Below, one piece after another: positions 39 to 32,000 of a stretch of DNA of 32,000 nucleotides. The notes beneath the pieces are model-generated. The model had not been told where the DNA came from, ran no database searches, and worked only from the letters and a program-made list of their open reading frames with translations. Origin of the DNA: an uncultured archaeon (lineage in GTDB: Archaea; Iainarchaeota; Iainarchaeia; Iainarchaeales; 0-14-0-20-30-16); assembly GCA_964595665.1 (NCBI GenBank), contig CAZQQS010000002.1, positions 1 to 32,000 on the forward strand. Direction: 5' to 3'. Every line of letters starts with the position of its first letter. Positions within the stretch are counted from its first letter, which is position 1. The position numbers were made by a program, and so were the translations under genes.

Positions 39-220
39 AATTAATCTCCTGTGCTTCCATAGCACCCCGGCCAATTATATAATTAGAACATATATATTTA
101 AAAAAGAAAGAGCAAATAAGAATCTAAAAAATAATATCTATGCGCCTTTAAATGACACACGAAGTAAGATCTTTAAAGATAGGTAATAAAATTTTGATTT
201 TTAAGAAAAAATTTTATTAT

Positions 221-293
221 GACCCCTGTGGGATTCGAACCCACGACACACGGGTTAAAAGCCCGTTGCTCTACCAGACTGAGCTAAGGGGCC
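221..293 (-). tRNA. tRNA-Lys (anticodon UUU), no genomically encoded CCA
   Basis: The reverse complement folds by hand into a cloverleaf. Acceptor stem is GGCCCCT/AGGGGTC, D stem GCTC/GAGC, anticodon stem ACGGG/CCCGT with loop C-U-UUU-A-A. The variable loop is 5 nt and the T arm is GTGGG-TTCGAAT-CCCAC. The base after the acceptor stem is A, then T, so CCA is not encoded. Confidence 0.93.
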
Positions 294-398
294 ACAAAAG
301 GCCTTAAATAAAATCAGTTTATAATTATTACTTGTCATTAATATAATAACTTAAAATATATTTGCCTGCAAATATTTATAAAGGTTGCCCGTGATTTT

Positions 399-3753: not shown

Positions 3754-5549
3754 ATTTGTTTTATAAAATTTTGAAATTTCATAGAATCATATTTAGTAAT
3801 ATTATAATCTAAAGGAAATAAAGGTTTATATTTAGGCCAAGCAAATCTTTTATCCAAAAGCAAAATAAATGCTTTATCTGTTTCAGATCTTATGCCTCGT
3901 CCACAAGCTTGAACAACTTTAGATATTGTAGGATACAAATAAGCATAATTCCAACCCTCTAATTTTTGTGCATCATAATATGCAATTAAAGCATTCATTT
4001 CTAAATCTGGTTCTGGAAACGGCATTCCAACCATTATTATACCAATTAAATCATCTCCTGGATAATCTACACCCTCTGAAAATGATCCTCCAACAACAGC
4101 AAATAATACAGAACCAAAACCAATTTTATTTTTTTTGAAATTATCAATTAATCTTTGCATTTGCACTTGAGTTAAATTTTTTTCCTGAACATAAATCTTT
4201 TTAATTAATTTTTCAGAAACTCTTAAATAAACACTTTGTAAAACATCATAACTTGGAAAAAAAACAGCAATATTTCCTGAAACTCTATTTGTTACATTAA
4301 CAATTATATCTGTAATTTTAGGAATGCTTTCTTTTCTTAATTCGTATTTTGTTGTAACATCATCAACATATTGGATTAATTTATTTTCTTTTGGAAATGG
4401 ACTTTCATATTGTTTAATATATGGGTTTTTTATTCCTAATAAATCAACATACATTTGCATTGGAGAAAAAGTTGCACTCATTAAAATACTTGCAAAAGCA
4501 TCATTAAAAATATCTTTAGATAAATAACTTGGATCCAATCCTTTAATAGAAATTGTATCTTGATTTTTAAATCTTGTTTTTACTTTTTTATCTTCTAACC
4601 ACGAAGCCATAAATCCAGCAATTTTATACAAATAAGGTTTTTTCTTTTCAGATTCTAAAATAAAATCTCCTGCTTTAATTAAACTATCATAAATCTCTTC
4701 ATTCAAAAATAAAAGATCAAAATAATTTTCATCTATAAAACCATTATTTAACTTATCAAACATATATTCAAAAGTTTCTAAAAATTCAGTAATATCATAC
4801 AAATTAGTTTTGGGACTCTTATCCCATTCCTTTTGAGCATAATTAATTTGTTTATTAGATAAACTATCTGATAAAATAGTTCTTAATCTATTTGGCAAAT
4901 TATGAGCTTCATCGAAAATAAATACACAATCTTTTAAAGATAATTCTAAATTATTGAATAACGAAGTTCTAATTTTATTTACAAAAATATAATTTACATC
5001 ACAAACAATTAATTGCGCTTTTTTTGCAATTGCTATGCTTGATGCATACGGACAAACCTCAAATTTTAAACACAATTCTCGCAATTCATTATGATGCATA
5101 GCGTCTGTATGTTCGGCAATTAATTTGTCTAATAATTTATTTTTAAATGGACCTTTACCTGTTGCATTTAAATATGGCAAACACGCTTGATTCTTAACTT
5201 TTTTTTCACATAATTCATAAAATTCAGGACCCAACCCAAATAAAAAAGGATCAATACACAAATTACTTTTTGAAACTAAATCTACAATTTTAAAATTTTT
5301 ATTAAATTTTTTATTTATTCCTTTTATTGTTTCTATAACTATTTTATGTTGGGAATTTTTAGGAGTTATAAAAAAAACTTTTTTATTATTTTTTTCTGCA
5401 AATTCTAAAACTGCAGATAAAGACGCATCAGTTTTTCCTAAACCTGTAGGCGCTTCAAATAAACCTGTAAATCCATTTTCTAAAGAATATTGAATATCTT
5501 TAATTAAAATATCTTGGCTTTTACGTAATTTATCATGTCTAAAATACAT
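3750..5549 (-). CDS. xpd: XPD/Rad3-family (DinG-like) superfamily 2 DNA helicase with an FeS-cluster domain
   Basis: Walker A APTGLGKT and DEAH box FDEAHNL are present. A cysteine cluster lies between them (NLCIDP, ELCEKKVKNQAC, EVCPY). Motif VI is VQACGRGIRSETDKAFILLLDKRF. Confidence 0.9.
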   Translation of the reverse strand: MYFRHDKLRKSQDILIKDIQYSLENGFTGLFEAPTGLGKTDASLSAVLEFAEKNNKKVFFITPKNSQHKIVIETIKGINKKFNKNFKIVDLVSKSNLCIDPFLFGLGPEFYELCEKKVKNQACLPYLNATGKGPFKNKLLDKLIAEHTDAMHHNELRELCLKFEVCPYASSIAIAKKAQLIVCDVNYIFVNKIRTSLFNNLELSLKDCVFIFDEAHNLPNRLRTILSDSLSNKQINYAQKEWDKSPKTNLYDITEFLETFEYMFDKLNNGFIDENYFDLLFLNEEIYDSLIKAGDFILESEKKKPYLYKIAGFMASWLEDKKVKTRFKNQDTISIKGLDPSYLSKDIFNDAFASILMSATFSPMQMYVDLLGIKNPYIKQYESPFPKENKLIQYVDDVTTKYELRKESIPKITDIIVNVTNRVSGNIAVFFPSYDVLQSVYLRVSEKLIKKIYVQEKNLTQVQMQRLIDNFKKNKIGFGSVLFAVVGGSFSEGVDYPGDDLIGIIMVGMPFPEPDLEMNALIAYYDAQKLEGWNYAYLYPTISKVVQACGRGIRSETDKAFILLLDKRFAWPKYKPLFPLDYNITKYDSMKFQNFIKQM

Positions 5550-13766: not shown

Positions 13767-13810
13767 AAAATAATATATAAGTATAAATTTATATGTGTTT
13801 ATACTTTAGT
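13767..13810. promoter_or_regulatory. Divergent promoter region between rnz and the PIN-CCA gene
   Basis: A 44-bp spacer, AAATAATATATAAGTATAAATTTATATGTG..., has TATA-like boxes readable on both strands. The spacing implies very short or leaderless 5' ends. Confidence 0.3.
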
Positions 13811-15394
13811 ATGCAAATTAAAGTTTTTGATACTTCGGCTTTCTTAAATAGGTTTAACTTTCAGGATTTTTCTGAAATTTATACTACTAATTCAGTAATT
13901 AATGAAATCTTAAGCTCAGAAAACAAATTTATCTTTGAAAATTTAATTTCACAAAAAAAAATTAAAATTCAAGACCCAAAAAAAGAAACAATTATCAATA
14001 TGAAAAAAAAATGCCCTAAAAGCTTATCTAAAACAGATATAGAAATATTATCTTTAGCTTATGAATTAAAGGCAGAATTACATACAGATGATTATATGCT
14101 AAGAAAGATTGCAAATGATTTTAAATTAAAAATTAAAGAAACATTATACGATATAAAATTAGATTTAGATAAAATTTATAATAAAATAAAACCATCTGAG
14201 AAAGAATTAAAGGATATTGAAAATATAAAAAATGAAATAATCCCCAAAATTGAAACTTATGCTAAAAAAAATAAAATTCCTTTGAAAAAAGTTTTATTAG
14301 CTGGTTCAAGTGCGCGAGGCACTTTTATCCACAATAGCAAAGATATGGATATATTTTTATTATTTGATTTATCTTTAGACATTAATGAAATAAAAGAGCT
14401 AAATGAATCAATATTAAAAAATGTTTTCCAAAACTTAGAATTTAAAGAAGAATATGGTGAGCACCCCTACTTAAAAACTAATTACAAAAATCAAAATATA
14501 GATTTTGTTCCAGGATTCTATATAAAAAATATAAAAAATAAAAAATCCTCAGTAGATAGAACACCTTTACATTTAGAATTTTTAAACAAACATCAAGATA
14601 AAGAAATAAAAAAACAAGTTATTTTATTAAAACAATTTTTGAAAAATAATTTATTGTATGGAGCAGACCAAAAAAATAATGGTTTTTCAGGATATTTAAC
14701 TGAACTATTTATCTTAAAATACAAAACATTTGAAAACTGCTTAAAAGTATTCGCAAAAATTGAAGATAATAAAAAAATAACTTTAACTGATTTTCCCAAG
14801 AAAAAATTCGATGATTATTTAATATTTATTGATCCTACAGATATAAATAGAAATGTTGCTTCAGCAGTTTCTAAAAAAAATTGGGCAATATTAGAAAAAA
14901 TATCCAAAGATTATTTAGAAAACAAAAGTGAAAGTTTCTTTTTTAAAAGCTATTATAATTCAGATTTAACTAATAACATTACTTTTTCAATAAATGTTGA
15001 TGCTAATACTTTAGATACTAATTGGGGCATAATTAAAAGTATTGCAAATAAACTAAGAAATGAGTTGAATAATAAAAACTACAATATTGAAAAATATTCT
15101 GGAATATATTCTAATGAATTAGGATATGTAATATTACAAAGTAAATTAAAGAATACTTTAAGAGGCCCATTAACAACAGATAAAAAAAATGCAAAAGCAT
15201 TCTTAAAAAAACATCCTAAAGCATTTGAAAAGAATAAACAATTATATTGTGATATAAAATTCACTAAAAAAGATATAATTGATTATACTAAAAAAGTGTT
15301 TAAGAAAAATTATCCTAAATTAAAGATAAAACTCGCAAATATTAGCGAAATAAATGACTTAAATAGAGTAAAAAAGGACTTTTTTGACTTTTAA
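13811..15394 (+). CDS. cca: Fusion protein: N-terminal Nob1-type PIN nuclease domain plus archaeal class I CCA-adding enzyme
   Basis: Residues 1-120 carry PIN features: VFDTSAFL, NEIL, SKTDIEILSLAYELKAELHTDDYMLRKIANDFKLKI. Residues ~125-527 are colinear with archaeal CCA-adding enzymes as I recall them (GSSARGTFIHNSKDMDIFLLF, GEHPYL, VDRTPLHLEFL, GFSGYLTELFIL, DPTDINRNVASAV). It is one uninterrupted frame. ATG at 13811 is preferred over 13793. Confidence 0.85.
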   Translation: MQIKVFDTSAFLNRFNFQDFSEIYTTNSVINEILSSENKFIFENLISQKKIKIQDPKKETIINMKKKCPKSLSKTDIEILSLAYELKAELHTDDYMLRKIANDFKLKIKETLYDIKLDLDKIYNKIKPSEKELKDIENIKNEIIPKIETYAKKNKIPLKKVLLAGSSARGTFIHNSKDMDIFLLFDLSLDINEIKELNESILKNVFQNLEFKEEYGEHPYLKTNYKNQNIDFVPGFYIKNIKNKKSSVDRTPLHLEFLNKHQDKEIKKQVILLKQFLKNNLLYGADQKNNGFSGYLTELFILKYKTFENCLKVFAKIEDNKKITLTDFPKKKFDDYLIFIDPTDINRNVASAVSKKNWAILEKISKDYLENKSESFFFKSYYNSDLTNNITFSINVDANTLDTNWGIIKSIANKLRNELNNKNYNIEKYSGIYSNELGYVILQSKLKNTLRGPLTTDKKNAKAFLKKHPKAFEKNKQLYCDIKFTKKDIIDYTKKVFKKNYPKLKIKLANISEINDLNRVKKDFFDF

Positions 15395-15433
15395 TGTAGA
15401 AAACTATATATATTTCTTAAAGGTAATATTATT

Positions 15434-16234
15434 ATGTCAAATTTATTTGATATTAACAATTATACTGATGAACAAGAAATATTAAGAGAGATATCTAATT
15501 TTGAAAATAAATTGAAAAAGTGTAAAAATCCTATAAAACAAAAAGAATTACAAAATAATATCTACTTATTAAAAAGAGCACTGCAATCTATTTATTCTTT
15601 AGACCCAAAAAAATTACAATATAGAATAGATGATTTGCAAAAGTCTTTAATTAAAGAAAGAAATAATAATCAAGAATCAAAAATATTGGCAAATTATTTA
15701 AAATTTTTAGTAAATAAAAATATTGAAAAAATACAACACCAAAATATGGGTGAATTAAAGGAGTTAGTATCTCAAGATTCAATAGATTTTGATATGGTTC
15801 TAGAAAAAATTAAACCTAAAAATTATTCTTATACTAAGAATTATATGAAAGCAATTGAAAATTGGTATGAATTATTAGATGATGATTTTGAGATAATAAC
15901 TCAAAATATCCCTAATTTTACGCTAAATGCAAAAGAAATATTACAATTAAAATCAGGAACACAAGCAGATATTTGTATTTTAACTTGTGCAATAATGCAC
16001 AAATTAGGAGATTATGCTGCAAAAGTAAATTGTGCAGAATTAAATGATTTTGAAATAATTTATTTTGTACAAACACAATATAAGAAAAAGACTTTAATAT
16101 TTGATTTCTTTCATTCTATGAATTATAATGATTTTTATAACCTCGAAGAAAAGGTTTTTGACAAGTATAAACCAAATAGTAAAACCATTAGAAAAATAAA
16201 ATTTAGCTTTAATGCATTTGATTATGAATCATAA
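15434..16234 (+). CDS. Hypothetical soluble protein: coiled-coil N-terminus and a possible transglutaminase-like C-terminal core
   Basis: It has no TM segment or signal peptide. The C-terminal LKSGTQADICILTCAIMHKLGDYAAKV loosely resembles the Cys-containing helix of transglutaminase-like cysteine proteases, but no clear His/Asp partners are seen. Its end overlaps the first pilin-like gene. Confidence 0.5.
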   Translation: MSNLFDINNYTDEQEILREISNFENKLKKCKNPIKQKELQNNIYLLKRALQSIYSLDPKKLQYRIDDLQKSLIKERNNNQESKILANYLKFLVNKNIEKIQHQNMGELKELVSQDSIDFDMVLEKIKPKNYSYTKNYMKAIENWYELLDDDFEIITQNIPNFTLNAKEILQLKSGTQADICILTCAIMHKLGDYAAKVNCAELNDFEIIYFVQTQYKKKTLIFDFFHSMNYNDFYNLEEKVFDKYKPNSKTIRKIKFSFNAFDYES

Positions 16235-16691
16235 AGGTTTTTTTGCAACGATTATAATTGCATTAATTATATCTATGATCATTCTGTTTGTTGGATTAAA
16301 TGTTAAAACCTTAAATGCAGAAACTAATTTTTTTGAAAATATTCTAGCAACAAAAGAATTAGAATTTAAGAGAAATACTTTTGAATATAATTTATATTAC
16401 TTATTAAAATATAATTTGGATACGAGCTCTAAAGAAAGTCAAGATTTAGATTTAGTTAAAGGAAAAATAGATTTAATATTACTTAATTATTTAATAGAAA
16501 ATGAATTTTATTCTATACCCATAACAAGCTTATTAATAAAAATTGTTGATTGTATCCCTAATGATTGTGTATATTATAGCTATTCAATATTGTCTTCAAT
16601 TAAAAAAAATATCACTTACAAAAATAAAGAAATTACAATAGGAATCCCTTTAAATTATACCATATCTAATGTGGTGATAATTAATGAATAA
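16224..16691 (+). CDS. Type IV pilin-like protein 1 (class III signal peptide)
   Basis: The N-terminus is MNHKG/FFATIIIALIISMIILFVGL. A C-terminal Cys pair is DCIPNDC. The start overlaps the upstream gene by 11 nt. Confidence 0.7.
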   Translation: MNHKGFFATIIIALIISMIILFVGLNVKTLNAETNFFENILATKELEFKRNTFEYNLYYLLKYNLDTSSKESQDLDLVKGKIDLILLNYLIENEFYSIPITSLLIKIVDCIPNDCVYYSYSILSSIKKNITYKNKEITIGIPLNYTISNVVIINE

Positions 16692-16929
16692 AGGGCAAAT
16701 ATCCATCGCACTTTTAATTAGTTTAATATTAATTCTAAGTATATTTGCAATATTCCTAACAAAATTAAAAGACTTAAATAAATTAAATATAGAATTAGAA
16801 CAAAAAAATAATAACAATCTTACACGAATTAATAATATTGAGAATAGTTTTAACATTAAAAAAATTAACAATATTAATCAACCATATATTTTACAGCAGG
16901 ATGTAGATTATGAAAATCATTACGAATAA
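16684..16929 (+). CDS. Type IV pilin-like protein 2 (class III signal peptide), short with an Asn-rich tail
   Basis: The N-terminus is MNKG/QISIALLISLILILSIFAIFL. It shares an ATGAATAA overlap with the upstream stop. Confidence 0.7.
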   Translation: MNKGQISIALLISLILILSIFAIFLTKLKDLNKLNIELEQKNNNNLTRINNIENSFNIKKINNINQPYILQQDVDYENHYE

Positions 16930-17293
16930 AGCACAAATATTAATCGACTTGCCAATTGTAATTTTAACAATAATCCTTTGCTTTGTATTATTTTTTCAGA
17001 TATATGAAATAAAAAAATATAATAATTTTTTAGAATTGATAACTATAACAGAAAATGCAATTACTAAGAAAAACTCTAAAATTGGATTTGTTAACTATGG
17101 GGAAACAAAAACATTACATTCGAATGTTATTTCGGAAATTAGATTAGAAGATCCAATAAAAAGAATTACAATTTATGATTATAATTCTAAAATTTATGAA
17201 CAAGGAATTCATTGCGAAAAAGAAATAAATATCTCTAGAGGAGTAATTTATGAAAATAAAATTTCTAAAATCATATTCACATTTTGCAAATAA
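16910..17293 (+). CDS. Type IV pilin-like protein 3 (class III signal peptide)
   Basis: The N-terminus is MKIITNKA/QILIDLPIVILTIILCFVLFF, with Asp at +5. Outside the TM segment there is a Cys pair (IHCEKE ... FTFCK). It overlaps the upstream gene by 20 nt. Confidence 0.65.
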   Translation: MKIITNKAQILIDLPIVILTIILCFVLFFQIYEIKKYNNFLELITITENAITKKNSKIGFVNYGETKTLHSNVISEIRLEDPIKRITIYDYNSKIYEQGIHCEKEINISRGVIYENKISKIIFTFCK

Positions 17294-17630
17294 AAAAGGT
17301 ATTTTATTTATTATAGAAATGCTTTTAGTATTATTATTAATTTTAGCCGTACTATTAGGTTTAACTAAAATAAACTTAACTAATAATTATGACCAATATT
17401 ATAATTTTTTAAAAATAAATGATATTTATACAATCATCTTAGGAAAAAATATTTATGATGCAGATGAAATAAAACAATTAATAGAATTTTATATGCCTTA
17501 TTCAGAATATGAAGTTATAAGTAATAAATTAATATCAAATAATATTACAAAAAACAATTGTTTAATAAAAAATATTGAGATTTATCATGAAGGAAATAAA
17601 AAAGCTATTCTAATTAAGATTTGTTATTAG
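17250..17630 (+). CDS. Type IV pilin-like protein 4 (class III signal peptide)
   Basis: The N-terminus is MKIKFLKSYSHFANKKG/ILFIIEMLLVLLLILAVLLGL, with Glu at +6. A C-terminal Cys pair is NNCLIK...KICY. There is no alternative in-frame start before the hydrophobic core. Confidence 0.65.
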   Translation: MKIKFLKSYSHFANKKGILFIIEMLLVLLLILAVLLGLTKINLTNNYDQYYNFLKINDIYTIILGKNIYDADEIKQLIEFYMPYSEYEVISNKLISNNITKNNCLIKNIEIYHEGNKKAILIKICY

Positions 17631-18042
17631 AAATATACCACAAAATTAATATTAAAAATGACATTAATATCCAACCTAAAAAATGAACTAAGTTAAAATG
17701 ATTTGGAGATATAAAAAATATTAATAATCGTAAAATATTTGCCAAATATAATATTGCCGAACCAAAAATACTGTAAATTAATTTCTGTTTCTTGTTTAAA
17801 TTAGTTAAGGGGCTTAACATAATTGCTAAAAATACAAATATAGAAAAAAAACCAGAACATTCATAATCTATAAGCATATTTGTTGAATTTAAAACAACAA
17901 AACCATTAGAATCAACTAGATTTAAAGCATGAAAAAACTTAATAACTGGGTATTCTAATGGCAAAAAGCTTAATGTATAAAACAAGATTAATGCCAAAAC
18001 AACATAAATTATGAAGAAAAGTACCTTTTTCTGAGAATCCAT
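17614..18042 (-). CDS. Minimal archaeosortase/exosortase-family protein
   Basis: It is a 142-aa polytopic membrane protein with the family's Cys/Arg/His triad in the expected order and context: IDYECSGFFSIFVFLAI (C62), LANILRLLIFF (R105), NLVHFLGWILMSF (H120). Confidence 0.7.
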   Translation of the reverse strand: MDSQKKVLFFIIYVVLALILFYTLSFLPLEYPVIKFFHALNLVDSNGFVVLNSTNMLIDYECSGFFSIFVFLAIMLSPLTNLNKKQKLIYSIFGSAILYLANILRLLIFFISPNHFNLVHFLGWILMSFLILILWYISNNKS

Positions 18043-18113
18043 AATATAAGAAGTAAGTCAATTTATAAAAGTTTACCTATTAATATTTATATTCTTTGTT
18101 ACAAAGTGATATT

Positions 18114-19313
18114 ATGGACATAAAAGAGCTGTTTAGAAAAGAAATAAACAAAAAGAGTGTTTTTAAAAATAAAGAACTAATTTCTCCGCATTATGTTCCA
18201 GATACTTTGCCATTTAGAGAATTACAAATTCAAGATATTATTACTAATTTTGCACCAGTTTTACAAAATAATAGACCAACAAATCTATTTATTTATGGGA
18301 AAAGTGGAACAGGAAAAACTGCAACAATAAACAAAGTATTAGAAAAAATGTTAGAAATTCAAAAAGAAAGTAATTTAGAACAAAAAATATTAACTACTTA
18401 TATGAATTGTCGAACTTACAATTCAAAATATAAAATACTATTAAAAATTGCAGATAACTTATTCCCTAAAAGTTATTTTGGATATAGTGCAAGTTATATT
18501 TATGATATGATATTAAAAGAATTACAAGAAAAAGGAATATATATTATTTTAGTATTAGATGAAATTGATTTAATTAAAGATGTAAACGATGCAATTTATT
18601 CTTTAGTTAGAATTAATGATGAATTAAAACAAGGAAGCATTACAATTGCAGGCGTATCTAATAATGTATTATTTAAAGATTCTTTAGATTCAAGAACTAA
18701 AAGTGGATTATGTAAAAAAGAATTATTATTTCCACCATACAATGCAAGAGAATTGCAAGAAATATTAAAACAAAGAATACCAATAAGTTTTGTAGAAAAT
18801 GTAGTGGATGATGGTGCAATTGCTTTAGCTTCAGCTTATGCTGCACAAGAATCTGGAGATGCACGAACTGCATTATTATTATTAGAAAGTGCGGGTGAAT
18901 TAGCAGATAAAGAAGAAACATATTTAATTACTGAAAATGAAATTAAAGGCGCAAAAAAACAAGTAGAAGAAGAAATAATTATTGAAATGTTATCTACTTT
19001 GCCAGAACAAATTAAAGTTGTGTTATATTCAATTGCAACAATGGTAAAAAACAAAAGATTCTCCACACACTTATTAAACGATGGACACGTAATTTATTCT
19101 GGAGATGCATATTTAGAATATGTGAAACAAATAAAACAATTATCTAAAATGCCAGTGTCTATGAAATGGTTTAAACAGTATTTAGAAGAATTAAACACCT
19201 ATGGATTCTTAACAATTACTACTTCTGGAAAAGGAGTTAGAGGTTCTACCACTTTAATAAAAATGGTTATAGATTCAAATACAGTATTAAAAGTTTTAGA
19301 AACTAATTTATAA
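18114..19313 (+). CDS. cdc6: Orc1/Cdc6 replication initiator
   Basis: Present are the N-terminal VPDTLPFRELQI, Walker A YGKSGTGKTAT, Walker B LVLDEIDL, sensor GDARTALLLLE and a C-terminal winged-helix region. ATG at 18114 follows AGTGAT; the track start at 18096 is a TTG. Confidence 0.92.
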   Translation: MDIKELFRKEINKKSVFKNKELISPHYVPDTLPFRELQIQDIITNFAPVLQNNRPTNLFIYGKSGTGKTATINKVLEKMLEIQKESNLEQKILTTYMNCRTYNSKYKILLKIADNLFPKSYFGYSASYIYDMILKELQEKGIYIILVLDEIDLIKDVNDAIYSLVRINDELKQGSITIAGVSNNVLFKDSLDSRTKSGLCKKELLFPPYNARELQEILKQRIPISFVENVVDDGAIALASAYAAQESGDARTALLLLESAGELADKEETYLITENEIKGAKKQVEEEIIIEMLSTLPEQIKVVLYSIATMVKNKRFSTHLLNDGHVIYSGDAYLEYVKQIKQLSKMPVSMKWFKQYLEELNTYGFLTITTSGKGVRGSTTLIKMVIDSNTVLKVLETNL

Positions 19314-19332
19314 TTTTATATGAGGGATAAGT

Positions 19333-19482
19333 ATGTATGGATTATTTACAATAAAATATGGGAAATCATTTTTAGTTCAACAATTTAGAATTGAAGACGA
19401 AGCAAAGAAAAAATATGTTGAGTTAGAATCTATAAAATCATCAGAAAAAGAAAAACAAGAATATTTCATTAGAAAAATATAA
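19333..19482 (+). CDS. Small hypothetical protein (49 aa), not in the ORF track
   Basis: Hand translation gives MYGLFTIKYGKSFLVQQFRIEDEAKKKYVELESIKSSEKEKQEYFIRKI*. ATG is preceded by GAGGG with a 6-nt spacer, 20 nt after the orc1/cdc6 stop. Confidence 0.4.
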   Translation: MYGLFTIKYGKSFLVQQFRIEDEAKKKYVELESIKSSEKEKQEYFIRKI

Positions 19483-19504
19483 TTATAAAAAATAAGAAAA
19501 ATGA

Positions 19505-20074
19505 TTATTTATTCTTCAAAAAAAGAATAAATTCATTAATTCTTTTTTCTTTTGTTTCTGGAAGTTTAGCTTTTAAAATAGCTCTAAAATACATTTTCTT
19601 TATTGATGGTGCAAGTTTTTCAAATTTTAATTTTAATTTTTCATTTATTTTTTTGTTTAATTCCTTTTTTAATTCTTCTGGCATATCTGGATTTTTTGGA
19701 ATCCCAAAATCATGAGTTTGTTTTCTTAATCCTTCTTTATAAAAACGTAATCCTTGTTCGCGCATTCTATTTTCTAAAATTAATTTTTTACCATAAGAAA
19801 TTGTATTATTACTCCATTTACTATTTTTAGTTCGTTTTGAATAAATTATTTTATATCTATCTTCATCAATTCTATGTACAGTAGTATCAATCCACCCAAA
19901 ACAAATTGCTTCGTGCATTAATTCCATTAAATTTGGTAAAGATTTACCAGTATGTTTTTTATATTTTATTACTGCAACTTTGTTTTCAATTATATGATTT
20001 TTTTTTAACCAGTTTGTAAAATCAGAGATCTTAAATACAACTATTTCTGGTATTTTAAGATTATTTTTTTGCAT
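19505..20074 (-). CDS. YdeI/OmpD-associated family protein (DUF1801-related)
   Basis: The central EAICFGWIDTTVHRIDEDRYKIIYSKRTKNSKWS and the C-terminal SIKKMYFRAILKAKLPETKEKRINEFILFL match the YdeI/OmdA pattern. I prefer the start at 20074 (MQKNNLKIPE), which overlaps the upstream gene by 14 nt. Confidence 0.6.
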   Translation of the reverse strand: MQKNNLKIPEIVVFKISDFTNWLKKNHIIENKVAVIKYKKHTGKSLPNLMELMHEAICFGWIDTTVHRIDEDRYKIIYSKRTKNSKWSNNTISYGKKLILENRMREQGLRFYKEGLRKQTHDFGIPKNPDMPEELKKELNKKINEKLKLKFEKLAPSIKKMYFRAILKAKLPETKEKRINEFILFLKNK

Positions 20075-20606
20075 TGATTTCACTTTTTCTTTTTTGATTT
20101 TTTTCTTGATTTGTTTTTTTATTATCATTTTCCTTTGATAATTCTTTTGATAAATCAGATTGTATTTTATAATACAATTGTTCATTAATTAAATTCTTAA
20201 AATATTGTTTTTGCAAAAACTCCAATTGTTTCTTTAATTTATCAAAATACAATAATTCTTTACCAATATTTTGCAAATCAAAATCTAGATAAAATAATCT
20301 TTCATCTAATTCTTTAACTTCTGAAACAAATTGATTCTCAGTTATTTTTCTTTTCAAATATTGTTTTTGCAAATTATTTTTTTGTTCTAAAACGGATTCT
20401 TTTTGTTTATATAAACTTAAAGATTGTTTTAAAGTATTAGATTCACTTTTAGAAAACAATAAATACCCAAAGAATAACACTAAAATAATGCTTATTAAAA
20501 ATATCAATATAAAATACCACACAGGGAAAATAATTAGTAAAATTGCAAATATTATGCTCAAAAATAAAGCAAATATGAAAAAAATCCCTTTTAGTTTATT
20601 GTCCAT
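20061..20606 (-). CDS. Hypothetical membrane protein (2 TM plus a cytoplasmic coiled coil)
   Basis: From the ATG at 20606 it reads MDNKLKGIFFIFALFLSIIFAILLIIFPVWYFILIFLISIILVLFFGYLLF, followed by a long heptad-like charged region. Confidence 0.5.
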   Translation of the reverse strand: MDNKLKGIFFIFALFLSIIFAILLIIFPVWYFILIFLISIILVLFFGYLLFSKSESNTLKQSLSLYKQKESVLEQKNNLQKQYLKRKITENQFVSEVKELDERLFYLDFDLQNIGKELLYFDKLKKQLEFLQKQYFKNLINEQLYYKIQSDLSKELSKENDNKKTNQEKNQKRKSEINAKK

Positions 20607-20707
20607 AAATTTTATATTTAAGATATATTTATATATATATAGCAGGAAATATATATTATACAAAAATACTTATTTTAATGTATAATATTTGATTTAGAGG
20701 GATATTT

Positions 20708-21463
20708 ATGGGATTAAGACCAGGAAGATGTTGTAGAAATATAGAGCGATCTTTTACTAGAATTGCTCCAAAAGTTCAAAGAAAGAACTTTTTAGGAGGA
20801 GTTCCAGGAGTAAGAACAAGAGACTTCGCAATTGGAAACCAAACTAAAGATTATAATAGTGTTTTAGACGTTATAGCTAAAGAAAGTATCCAAATAAGAG
20901 ATAACGCTTTAGAAGCATTAAGACAAAAATTGGTTAAGAAATTAACTGCAGAAGTTGGAAAAGAAGAATATTTTATAAAAATAAGATTATATCCTCACCA
21001 CATATTAAGAGAGCACAAATCTGCTTCTGGTGCTGGTGCCGATAGAGTATCAAAGGGTATGAAATTAGCTTATGGTAAAAATACTGGAAGAGCTGTTCAA
21101 ATTAGAAAAGGACAAACTTTATTATCTATTGTAGTAGATGCGAGTAATATTGCAAAAGTAAAGAAAATTATAGATACTATAAGATACAAAGTAAATATGG
21201 CTTTTGAAGTAAAACAAGGAATACACGAAAACAAAAAATTAACTGGTAGAAAGAAGTGGACTAGAGAAGCAAAATTACAAAAGTTACAAGAGCCAGTTAA
21301 AGAAGAAGCTAAAGATGCTAAAGGTAAAGCTCCTGCTAAAGGTGGAAAGGCAGCACCTGCTGCTAAAGCAGATGCTAAAGCTGCTCCAGCTGCTAAAGGT
21401 GGAAAGGCAGCACCTGCTGCTAAGGCAGATGCTAAAGCACCAGCTAAGAAAGGTAAGAAGTGA
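20708..21463 (+). CDS. rpl10e: Ribosomal protein L10e (uL16) with a ~85-aa Lys/Ala/Pro-rich C-terminal extension
   Basis: The N-terminus MGLRPGRCCRNIERSFTRIAPKVQRKNFLGGVPG and the segment LYPHHILREHK...GAGADRVSKGM are classic L10e. GAGGG precedes the ATG. The tail is KGGKAAPAAKADAKAAPAAKGGKAAPAAKADAKAPAKKGKK. Confidence 0.92.
   Translation: MGLRPGRCCRNIERSFTRIAPKVQRKNFLGGVPGVRTRDFAIGNQTKDYNSVLDVIAKESIQIRDNALEALRQKLVKKLTAEVGKEEYFIKIRLYPHHILREHKSASGAGADRVSKGMKLAYGKNTGRAVQIRKGQTLLSIVVDASNIAKVKKIIDTIRYKVNMAFEVKQGIHENKKLTGRKKWTREAKLQKLQEPVKEEAKDAKGKAPAKGGKAAPAAKADAKAAPAAKGGKAAPAAKADAKAPAKKGKK
21335..21445 (+). repeat. Near-perfect tandem duplication (57-bp unit, about 2 copies) inside the L10e tail
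   Basis: GCTAAAGGTGGAAAGGCAGCACCTGCTGCTAAAGCAGATGCTAAAGC... recurs at 21335 and 21392 (19-codon period). It differs by one A/G change and a short indel near the end of the unit. Local GC is far above the window background. Confidence 0.85.
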
Positions 21464-31580: not shown

Positions 31581-32000
31581 TTATCCGGCGCCTCCGCCTC
31601 CACCACCGCCCCCTCCAGATGAACCTCCAGAAAATCCAGAAGCCCCAGAATTTGCCATTGCAGAAGAAAAGGCATTACTAAAATCACTATTTATACTTGC
31701 CAAATCCGAAACACTTATTGAACCAACAACAAATATAGTTGAATTTGTTTTTCCAGTATAATTCTCAAAAACTAATTTCATATTTTTTTGTACTTTTTTA
31801 GCTACTCCTAAAGGAATAGCATAAACCAAATATCTTTCCCATAATTTTATATCCATAATTTCTTTGTTATTAAAATCTGAAAAGTGATTTAAATATTTTT
31901 TTAATGCATTCCATTTAGAATATTGTAAATCTGTTTCCAAATCGAATTTTATAAAAAATTTCTTTACGAAAAACAAAGGTATTAAAAATACAAAATAAAT
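31581..32000 (-). CDS. C-terminal part of a DUF2207-like membrane protein with a poly-Gly tail (partial; continues past the right edge)
   Basis: WERYLVYAIPLGVAKKV and the tail SGASGFSGGSSGGGGGGGGGAG are typical of DUF2207 C-termini. The frame stays open upstream to position 32000 (..IILYFLIP..), so the track's TTG at 31976 is not the true start. Confidence 0.6.
   Translation of the reverse strand: MYFVFLIPLFFVKKFFIKFDLETDLQYSKWNALKKYLNHFSDFNNKEIMDIKLWERYLVYAIPLGVAKKVQKNMKLVFENYTGKTNSTIFVVGSISVSDLASINSDFSNAFSSAMANSGASGFSGGSSGGGGGGGGGAG

Follow-up and report, generated by a model that had tools for sequence, protein, structure and literature searches.

Four putative type IV pilin-like protein families in a five-gene module of one Candidatus Iainarchaeota clade

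What kind of proteins do four small, overlapping genes encode when their N-termini recall type IV pilins, and do these genes stand alone? The question is raised by a 32,000-nucleotide (nt) stretch of DNA from an uncultured archaeon (assembly GCA_964595665.1, contig CAZQQS010000002.1, positions 1 to 32,000; hereafter, the window), in which an earlier reading of the letters alone (the original prediction) had described an orphan operon of four pilin-like genes, here named g1 to g4. Our analysis of the window and of related contigs revealed that these genes form, together with a fifth gene directly upstream (up267), a module peculiar to a single clade of Candidatus Iainarchaeota (DPANN; Diapherotrites), and that the products of g1–g4 are probably type IV pilin-like proteins made with class III signal peptides. 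What is claimed for g1–g4 is that they work like pilins, and not that they are members of any named pilin family. The module and the stretch ahead of it comprise the following open reading frames (ORFs) and elements, with protein lengths in amino acids (aa):

15395–15433, plus strand: intergenic stretch of 39 nt preceding up267; a TATA-like TATATTT lies about 25 nt upstream of the start codon
15434–16234, plus strand: up267, 266 aa; its 3' end runs 11 nt into g1
16224–16691, plus strand: g1, an ORF of 155 aa
16684–16929, plus strand: g2, an ORF of 81 aa
16910–17293, plus strand: g3, an ORF of 127 aa
17250–17630, plus strand: g4, an ORF of 126 aa

Five overlapping genes kept together in one clade

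The window is very AT-rich (GC content 0.20–0.31, and about 20% around the locus), and DNA of about 20% GC readily yields hydrophobic, Lys/Asn-rich ORFs, so that g1–g4 might be taken for chance open frames. This explanation is refuted, with a probability that we regard as practically nil, by ratios of nonsynonymous to synonymous substitution rates (dN/dS) of 0.11–0.21 for g1–g4, by ORF lengths and an order that are kept in at least eight lineages, and by invariant Cys, Gln and Glu residues. The ratios, calculated against the relative L001 (about 80% identical), lie in a range like that of the neighbouring housekeeping genes and are, singly, 0.16 for up267, 0.11 for g1, 0.21 for g2, 0.12 for g3 and 0.21 for g4. 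The four ORFs are real genes under purifying selection.

The contigs of relatives were reached via close homologs of g1, the neighbouring archaeosortase-family gene, the upstream protein and g3. The block was found in L001–L005 (about 80% identical), L007/L008/L011, L010/L012/L013, L017 (GCA_053535955.1), L018, L014, L016, L019 and L020/L021; one of the relatives is Candidatus Diapherotrites archaeon CG08_land_8_20_14_0_20_30_16 (Archaea; Nanobdellati (DPANN); Candidatus Iainarchaeota). Conservation of the gene order in related genomes had been proposed as a check on the operon, and the order g1-g2-g3-g4 is indeed kept in all relatives where it is visible, covering at least eight diverged Iainarchaeota lineages. 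ORF lengths, order and motifs persist even where the identity of g1–g4 to the window is only about 30–50%. At a distance where Orc1 is 78% and the CCA-adding enzyme 60% identical, g1–g4 are only 38–47% identical, and the four genes are therefore fast-evolving.

The successive overlaps g1/g2, g2/g3 and g3/g4 measure 8, 20 and 44 nt, in agreement with the 8–44 nt first reported. An alternative g1 start at 16212 was rejected, as it is not backed by orthologs. Of nine lineages checked, six keep the 44-nt overlap of g3 and g4; it measures 38 nt in L017 and is lacking in L014 and L020. Shine–Dalgarno-like motifs precede g2 (GGTGA in the window, L001 and L007; GTGAT in L010) and, in the window, g4 (GAGGAG), and the module genes appear to be translationally coupled.

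The original prediction had taken the four genes as the whole unit. The four stand as real genes, while the unit itself had to be enlarged by up267, whose orthologs lie directly 5' of g1 with overlapping ends in all seven lineages where this position is visible. Among these is the most divergent relative, L014, in which a cold-shock gene takes the place of the CCA enzyme upstream of the module and up267 is still attached to g1–g4; the conserved unit therefore comprises five genes. Scans of genome and of metagenome contigs with up267 found two loci each, all within the same clade. The sequence ahead of up267 is alike in the window, L001 and L007, and the 39-nt stretch with its TATATTT could serve as promoter for one leaderless transcript of all five genes. 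In L014, the upstream neighbour is different and divergently oriented, so that the module there must carry its own promoter.

A prepilin-type N-terminus in front of unrelated globular parts

All four proteins open with a short basic leader that ends in [K/R/N/Q]-[G/A] and is followed by about 20 hydrophobic residues. The junctions, as read, are MNHKG/FFATIII in g1, MNKG/QISIALL in g2, MKIITNKA/QILIDLP in g3 and ...ANKKG/ILFIIEM in g4; the common feature that would place them among class III signal proteins is present in each: at the very N-terminus, a short, positively charged leader ends in [KRDE]-[GA] and runs straight into a hydrophobic helix of some 20 residues. Across lineages, the junction reads K-G/[FYV] in g1, [KR]-[GA]/Q-[IM]-S in g2, [KQI]-[GA]/[QFL]-x-x-x-[DE] in g3 and [KN]-G/x-x-[FY]-x-[FY]-E in g4. 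The leader length varies from 3 to 24 residues over families and lineages, and the junction residues are the best-conserved part of each N-terminus, invariant or nearly so in the 7–9 lineages available per family. Comparison of the families by hhalign revealed an in-register alignment that covers only the K-G and the hydrophobic helix, with no similarity between the globular parts. The class III architecture proposed from the letters alone is thus confirmed, and is conserved in four non-homologous families over at least eight lineages.

A six-frame scan of the 32 kb served to gauge how often such a motif arises by chance. It asked for [KR][GA] near an ORF start and, after it, 20 residues of which 13 or more are strongly hydrophobic and none is Lys or Arg. 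The scan returned g1–g4, one other real ORF start, which belongs to a protein with two transmembrane (TM) helices, and three internal or antisense artefacts. The two-helix protein (20061–20663, minus strand) was rejected as an additional pilin, as its 'MDNKLKG/IFFIF' motif is absent in the L007 ortholog; this membrane protein has a coiled-coil tail, and its N-terminus likely mimics a class III signal in what is probably no pilin.

An acidic residue was predicted at position +5 or +6 of two of the four proteins and was found as Asp at +5 in g3 and Glu at +6 in g4; g1 and g2 have none. A Gln at +1 combined with an acidic +5 is reportedly the signature of DUF361/EppA-type class III signals, which g2 (Q(+1), QIS) and g3 (Q(+1), Asp or Glu at +5) resemble. 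The three Cys pairs described for the window are present in g1 (C110/C115), g3 (C102/C126) and g4 (C104/C125), albeit not everywhere else, since the g1 pair is missing in L014 and the last g4 Cys in L016. A penultimate Cys is common to g3 and g4, and paralogy of the two was considered and dropped, as hhalign detected no globular similarity between them.

Beyond the shared N-terminus, the four families differ in build. In g1, the leader MNHKG and a hydrophobic helix of about 22 aa are followed by a helix-rich middle and a C-terminal beta region with C110-x4-C115; its K-G is invariant in seven lineages, six of which retain the Cys pair. Homology searches found g1 homologs only in close relatives, and g1 has no Pfam, NCBIfam or PDB match. 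A joined g1–g4 profile from five lineages found no match among 8000 candidates. The short g2 carries the leader MNKG, the mature start QIS and a conserved C-terminal H-Y, and its [KR]-[GA]-Q-[IM]-S is invariant in seven lineages. Orthologs of g2 align in register with the Class_IIIsignal family PF04021, below its cutoff of 23.7 bits (13.9 bits over 2–26 of 27 positions, 12.4 bits over 1–23 of 27). With its short length and QIS start, g2 could alternatively be a filament subunit. In g4, an unusually long leader of 17 aa (MKIKFLKSYSHFANKKG) precedes the mature ILFIIE... and the Cys104 and penultimate Cys125, while G(-1) and E(+6) do not vary among eight lineages. The NCBIfam models of bacterial competence pilins were not passed: ComGD gave g4 a noise-level score (14 bits, E 0.05, cutoff 70), and ComGC reached 12 bits against a cutoff of 75.

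The remaining family, g3, has the leader MKIITNKA, the mature start QILID..., the acidic +5 and Cys102 together with the penultimate Cys126. An exhaustive phmmer search with g3 in 1.84 billion representatives returned nine further proteins (E 2e-21 to 2e-5), eight of which are family members of 110–148 aa; the ninth, of 1,210 aa, aligns in eight short stretches and was set aside. As the search yielded only these eight other members, the family is confined to a small clade. In the family alignment (A8), the junction follows [KQI][GA]/[QFL]xxx[DE], with C102, C126, R110 and Y114 unchanged throughout. Built with this alignment, the AlphaFold model of g3 (mean predicted local distance difference test (pLDDT) 71.5, predicted template modelling score 0.50) displays a continuous 49-residue helix (4–52), a poorly defined loop and then a sheet of four consecutive antiparallel strands (83–90, 93–99, 105–114 and 117–126; pLDDT about 85). 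Cys102 lies ahead of strand 3 and Cys126 at the end of strand 4, and the hairpin would bring the two together and staple the C-terminus. In its overall shape, the g3 model recalls the lollipop that is typical of type IV pilins.

Further class III proteins were identified next to the module of L014. At 3865–4065 of this contig, a 66-aa protein with the junction 'RA/QISAEMII' passes PF04021 (26.1 bits against 23.7), and the ORF at 4034–4483 (149 aa, N-terminus 'RG/QISLEF') reaches only 13.4 bits; both lie 0.8 kb upstream of the module. A bona fide PF04021 protein beside the module implies that the clade uses Epd-type pilins, and the 66-aa protein, which has no counterpart in the window, is a candidate short, Epd-type major pilin.

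The fifth gene and the surroundings of the module

The product of up267 has no signal peptide or TM helix. Neither terminus carries a hydrophobic stretch, which makes a cytoplasmic location the most likely one. The N-terminal half of the protein is coiled-coil-like and gave only noise matches of the coiled-coil type, followed by a transglutaminase-like C-terminal domain (about residues 125–266); no PDB sequence was matched. In five of seven lineages, transglutaminase-like families are the top matches over residues ~110–240, co-located but below threshold: DUF553 (PF04473) at 19.7 bits against 20.5, Transglut_core (PF01841) at E 0.006–0.03 and CEP76_peptidase (PF24656) at E 0.013–0.06. The alignment of orthologs contains the motif G-x-[QKP]-x-D-I-x-I-L-x-C-x-x-M-H-x-L-G-D, whose spacing we take to match the Cys helix of the transglutaminase core; its G-x-x-x-D...L-G-D frame likens up267 to transglutaminase-like pseudo-peptidases, from which it differs by scores that are all below cutoff. 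Read against this helix, the position of the catalytic Cys would be occupied by Gln, Lys or Pro. The His of the domain is not conserved either and no Cys-His-Asp triad is present, so that membership in the transglutaminase superfamily is not claimed, and the domain is probably fold-like only and inactive. We infer that up267 may be an accessory in assembly or regulation. Two observations on other archaea may be compared: transglutaminase-family peptidases are strongly linked to clade 1 type IV pilus (T4P) loci, and a haloarchaeal system has an intracellular coiled-coil component (Makarova et al. 2016, PMC4858521).

Two further genes flank the module:

13793–15394, plus strand: archaeal CCA-adding enzyme with an N-terminally fused PIN_6 ribonuclease-type domain
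17614–18042, minus strand: mini exosortase/archaeosortase-family gene, 142 aa, convergent on g4 with a 17-nt 3' overlap

The mini-archaeosortase passes the model of the generic family only (TIGR04178, 36.3 bits against a cutoff of 23) and stays below the cutoffs of the specific ones (ArtD, TIGR04175, 28 against 125; XrtG 38 against 103), while its C-S-G-F-F-S, N-I-[LF]-R and H..GW motifs, with the Cys, Arg and His, are invariant. It adjoins g4 in the window, L001/L004, L013, L017 and L018, is separated from g4 by one gene in L007, and is replaced by a helix-turn-helix (HTH) gene in L016. The inserted gene (L007 10473–11081, also in L008 and L011, and so in one lineage only) encodes a 202-aa protein with 10-residue 'G[YF]xxxxLxxx' repeats (PF25296 Decapeptide). 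The archaeosortase is an uncertain member of the pilin-like system.

The CCA-adding enzyme (TIGR03671, 299 bits) carries the PIN_6 fusion in every relative seen (L001, L004, L007, L010, L017 and L018). On the other side, an Orc1/Cdc6 gene (TIGR02928, 330 bits) lies close to the pilin-like locus; no origin recognition box (ORB)-like repeats were found in its short intergenic flanks (18042–18114 and 19313–19505). Pfam/NCBIfam scans further identified L10e, Lhr helicase, an XPD-type helicase and NDK in the window, and Lon, TYW3, a beta-CASP nuclease, S17e and Rpb6 were inferred from precomputed Pfam matches on syntenic orthologs. The uL16/L10e protein (20708–21463, plus strand) has a Lys/Ala/Pro-rich C-terminal tail (…GKAAPAAKADAKAAPAAKGG…), the product of a 57-nt tandem repeat at 21313–21426, and an ORF at 31581–31976 (minus strand) ends in a long Gly/Ser-rich tail (…SGFSGGSSGGGGGGGGGAG). 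ARAGORN and Rfam identified a single RNA gene, tRNA-Lys(UUU) at 219–294 (minus strand).

Likeness to known systems and competing readings

Among archaeal filaments, the module most invites comparison with the Epd pilus of Methanococcus maripaludis (type IV filament (TFF) system 1, clade 1 T4P), whose pilins are EppA-processed DUF361/PF04021 proteins, with EpdA–C as minor pilins and the short EpdE as the major one. Short basic leaders that end in [KR]-[GA] are common to both, as are several non-homologous small pilins per operon; Q(+1) in g2 and g3, the acidic +5 of g3, the 'QIS' start of g2 and the PF04021 short pilin beside the L014 module extend the likeness. The two differ in that g2 orthologs stay below the PF04021 threshold while g1, g3 and g4 do not match this family, that the module locus lacks EppA, the ATPase and the double platform, that g1 and g4 start with Phe, Ile or Leu rather than Gln, and that the transglutaminase-like partner of the module would be cytoplasmic and devoid of the catalytic Cys.

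The bacterial sets GspH-I-J-K, FimU-PilV-W-X and ComGD-GE-GF-GG likewise come from compact operons, each for four small pilin-like proteins that are not homologous to one another and of which only some have an acidic residue near +5. The C-termini of g3 and g4, which would be stapled by disulfides, and the g3 model of alpha1 plus a four-stranded antiparallel sheet fit this pattern. The module departs from it in its archaeal host, in its [KR]-[GA] with Q(+1), in the Glu of g4 at +6, in the lack of any hidden Markov model (HMM) match and in the lack of a linked major pilin or machinery. Of the bacterial G(-1), F/M(+1), E(+5) motif, G/A(-1) is present and the acidic +5 is found in g3 only. The likeness concerns how such sets work and does not make g1–g4 members of them. 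The original prediction had contrasted this layout with typical archaeal loci. A minor-pilin set is a reasonable reading of it; the contrast was overstated, since archaeal pilin genes outside T4P machinery operons are common and clade-1 loci hold about five minor pilins (PMC4858521).

These comparisons suggest how the module might work. The four proteins would be inserted by Sec and cut after the conserved Gly/Ala by a PibD/EppA-type peptidase encoded elsewhere, which would leave mature N-termini of Gln or Phe/Ile/Leu with a hydrophobic helix of about 20 residues behind them. Pulling these helices from the membrane and packing them into the core of a filament would be the task of an ATPase/platform machine, also encoded elsewhere, with the up267 product acting as an assembly or regulatory factor. 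In this scheme, g1–g4 would together make up a heteromeric set of minor pilins, for priming or for the tip, in a pilus of the Epd-like (TFF system 1-like) kind. The unrelated globular parts, the fixed order and the apparent translational coupling make a stoichiometric minor-pilin set likelier than four alternative major pilins; we put forward this specific assignment more tentatively than the pilin-like nature of the proteins, as one that could quite possibly hold.

Several results weigh against a pilin-like reading of g1–g4. No Pfam/NCBIfam pilin or class III model was passed by g1–g4 of the window, which beyond the sub-threshold ComG scores gave no match at E ≤ 1, nor by their orthologs, and profile searches of PDB sequences with g1–g4 returned no pilin; a weak g2 match to a PDB sequence, 'FlaL2', was discarded as an ordinary Sec signal peptide. 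Structure prediction, which had been proposed as a check, covered g1 and g3 and came out divided: g3 yielded the helix and four-stranded sheet described above, while the g1 model, built on an alignment of close homologs only, is unusable (pLDDT 39.5), and Foldseek with the g3 model against the PDB found no pilin but only insignificant uS3 fragments (best E 0.3). The g4 leader is not only long but followed by an aromatic residue at +3, and g4 orthologs would presumably fail the FlaFind pattern. Neither the 32-kb window nor flanks of up to 10 kb in relatives contain a gene for a prepilin peptidase, ATPase or platform; for the window, this upholds the earlier statement, on the strength of Pfam/NCBIfam scans of most of its ORFs and of precomputed Pfam matches on syntenic orthologs for the rest. 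Finally, the T4P-linked transglutaminase-like proteins of the literature are surface peptidases, whereas up267 is predicted to be cytoplasmic and without the Cys, which makes the parallel a loose one.

Some of these points would equally suit an envelope complex in which g1–g4 are uncleaved signal anchors (N-in/C-out), with no type IV filament and with the K-G as a product of the positive-inside rule. The missing pilin HMM or fold match, the lack of assembly machinery nearby and the 17-aa leader of g4, which falls outside what we take to be the strict FlaFind pattern, all favour such anchors. Anchoring leaves unexplained, however, why all four unrelated families have an invariant Gly/Ala right at the edge of the helix, and why Q(+1)/'QIS' and the acidic +5/+6 are conserved. 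The unbroken 49-residue helix of the g3 model, moreover, far exceeds a TM anchor, and a bona fide PF04021 protein adjoins the module of L014. We consider the anchor explanation unlikely, though it deserves more credit than the next. A non-adhesive pseudopilus for uptake or secretion, similar to a bindosome or a competence system, could be recognised in the acidic +5/+6 of two of the four proteins, which recalls the GspH-K and ComGD-GG sets, in the weak ComGD match of g4 and in the lack of a major pilin gene in the window. Yet no solute-binding, ComEC/ComEA-like or secretin-like gene was found in the window or the flanks, the ComGD score is at noise level, and the candidate Epd-type major pilin adjoins the L014 module; a pseudopilus in place of an attachment pilus thus appears improbable.

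Another alternative draws on the mini-archaeosortase: the module would work with this enzyme, either as a short pseudopilus-like structure that aids the export, presentation or anchoring of its substrates, or because the enzyme handles the pilin-like proteins themselves. In at least five lineages, the archaeosortase gene converges on g4 and the 3' ends of the two overlap; this, the intact Cys/Arg/His motifs and ArtD as the best-scoring archaeosortase model speak for such cooperation, and the small size of the enzyme (about 150 aa) and its place beside class III-signal proteins recall the ArtD/PIP-CTERM system. The association has a precedent, since NCBIfam holds the curated TIGR04205, 'class III signal peptide domain-containing protein, archaeosortase D/PIP-CTERM system-associated'. 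However, neither g1–g4 nor their orthologs match TIGR04205, the ArtD threshold is missed, g1–g4 have no C-terminal motif with TM helix and basic tail, and the 32-kb window encodes no PIP-CTERM target or other sorting-signal protein. The adjacency itself carries little weight and may be mere synteny, because the whole stretch from the CCA enzyme to Orc1 is syntenic, with the HTH neighbour in L016 and the unrelated insertion in L007 as departures. As neither TIGR04205 nor ArtD was matched, we give this alternative a very small probability. Our literature search on T4P machinery in Diapherotrites and on PIP-CTERM/ArtD found nothing specific. A more speculative proposal, which we hold to be a long shot, joins the five genes and the mini-archaeosortase into one clade-peculiar surface-biogenesis system, in which a short pseudopilus of four dedicated pilin-like subunits, nucleated from the cytoplasmic side by the putatively dead transglutaminase-like coiled-coil protein, would act with an ArtD-like enzyme to display or anchor surface proteins; if true, it would mechanistically couple type IV pilin processing to archaeosortase sorting.

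The reading of g1–g4 as pilin-like proteins, and perhaps as a minor-pilin set, leaves current views unchanged, in that archaea, DPANN included, are already expected to encode divergent pilins apart from the machinery. Pilins of DPANN are often unrecognisable, and 'dark matter' signal-peptide proteins beside T4P genes have been read as divergent pilins (PMC6393860); system 1/Epd has been reported in DPANN (bioRxiv 10.64898/2026.04.22.720090). As separate pilin genes and divergent DPANN pilins are already described, g1–g4 are new families of a known kind. The novelty is modest and lies in the four pilin-like families, with the coupled, seemingly inactive transglutaminase-like protein and the recurrent archaeosortase neighbour as mildly new. 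Nothing in our analysis bears out the earlier suggestion that the organism is probably host-dependent. If correct, the reading would assign a role to five 'hypothetical' genes recurrent in one Iainarchaeota clade and add four pilin-like families that evolve very fast while the order of their genes is fixed. The set would then be a candidate for the minor pilins or the tip of those surface filaments with which ultra-small archaea supposedly attach.

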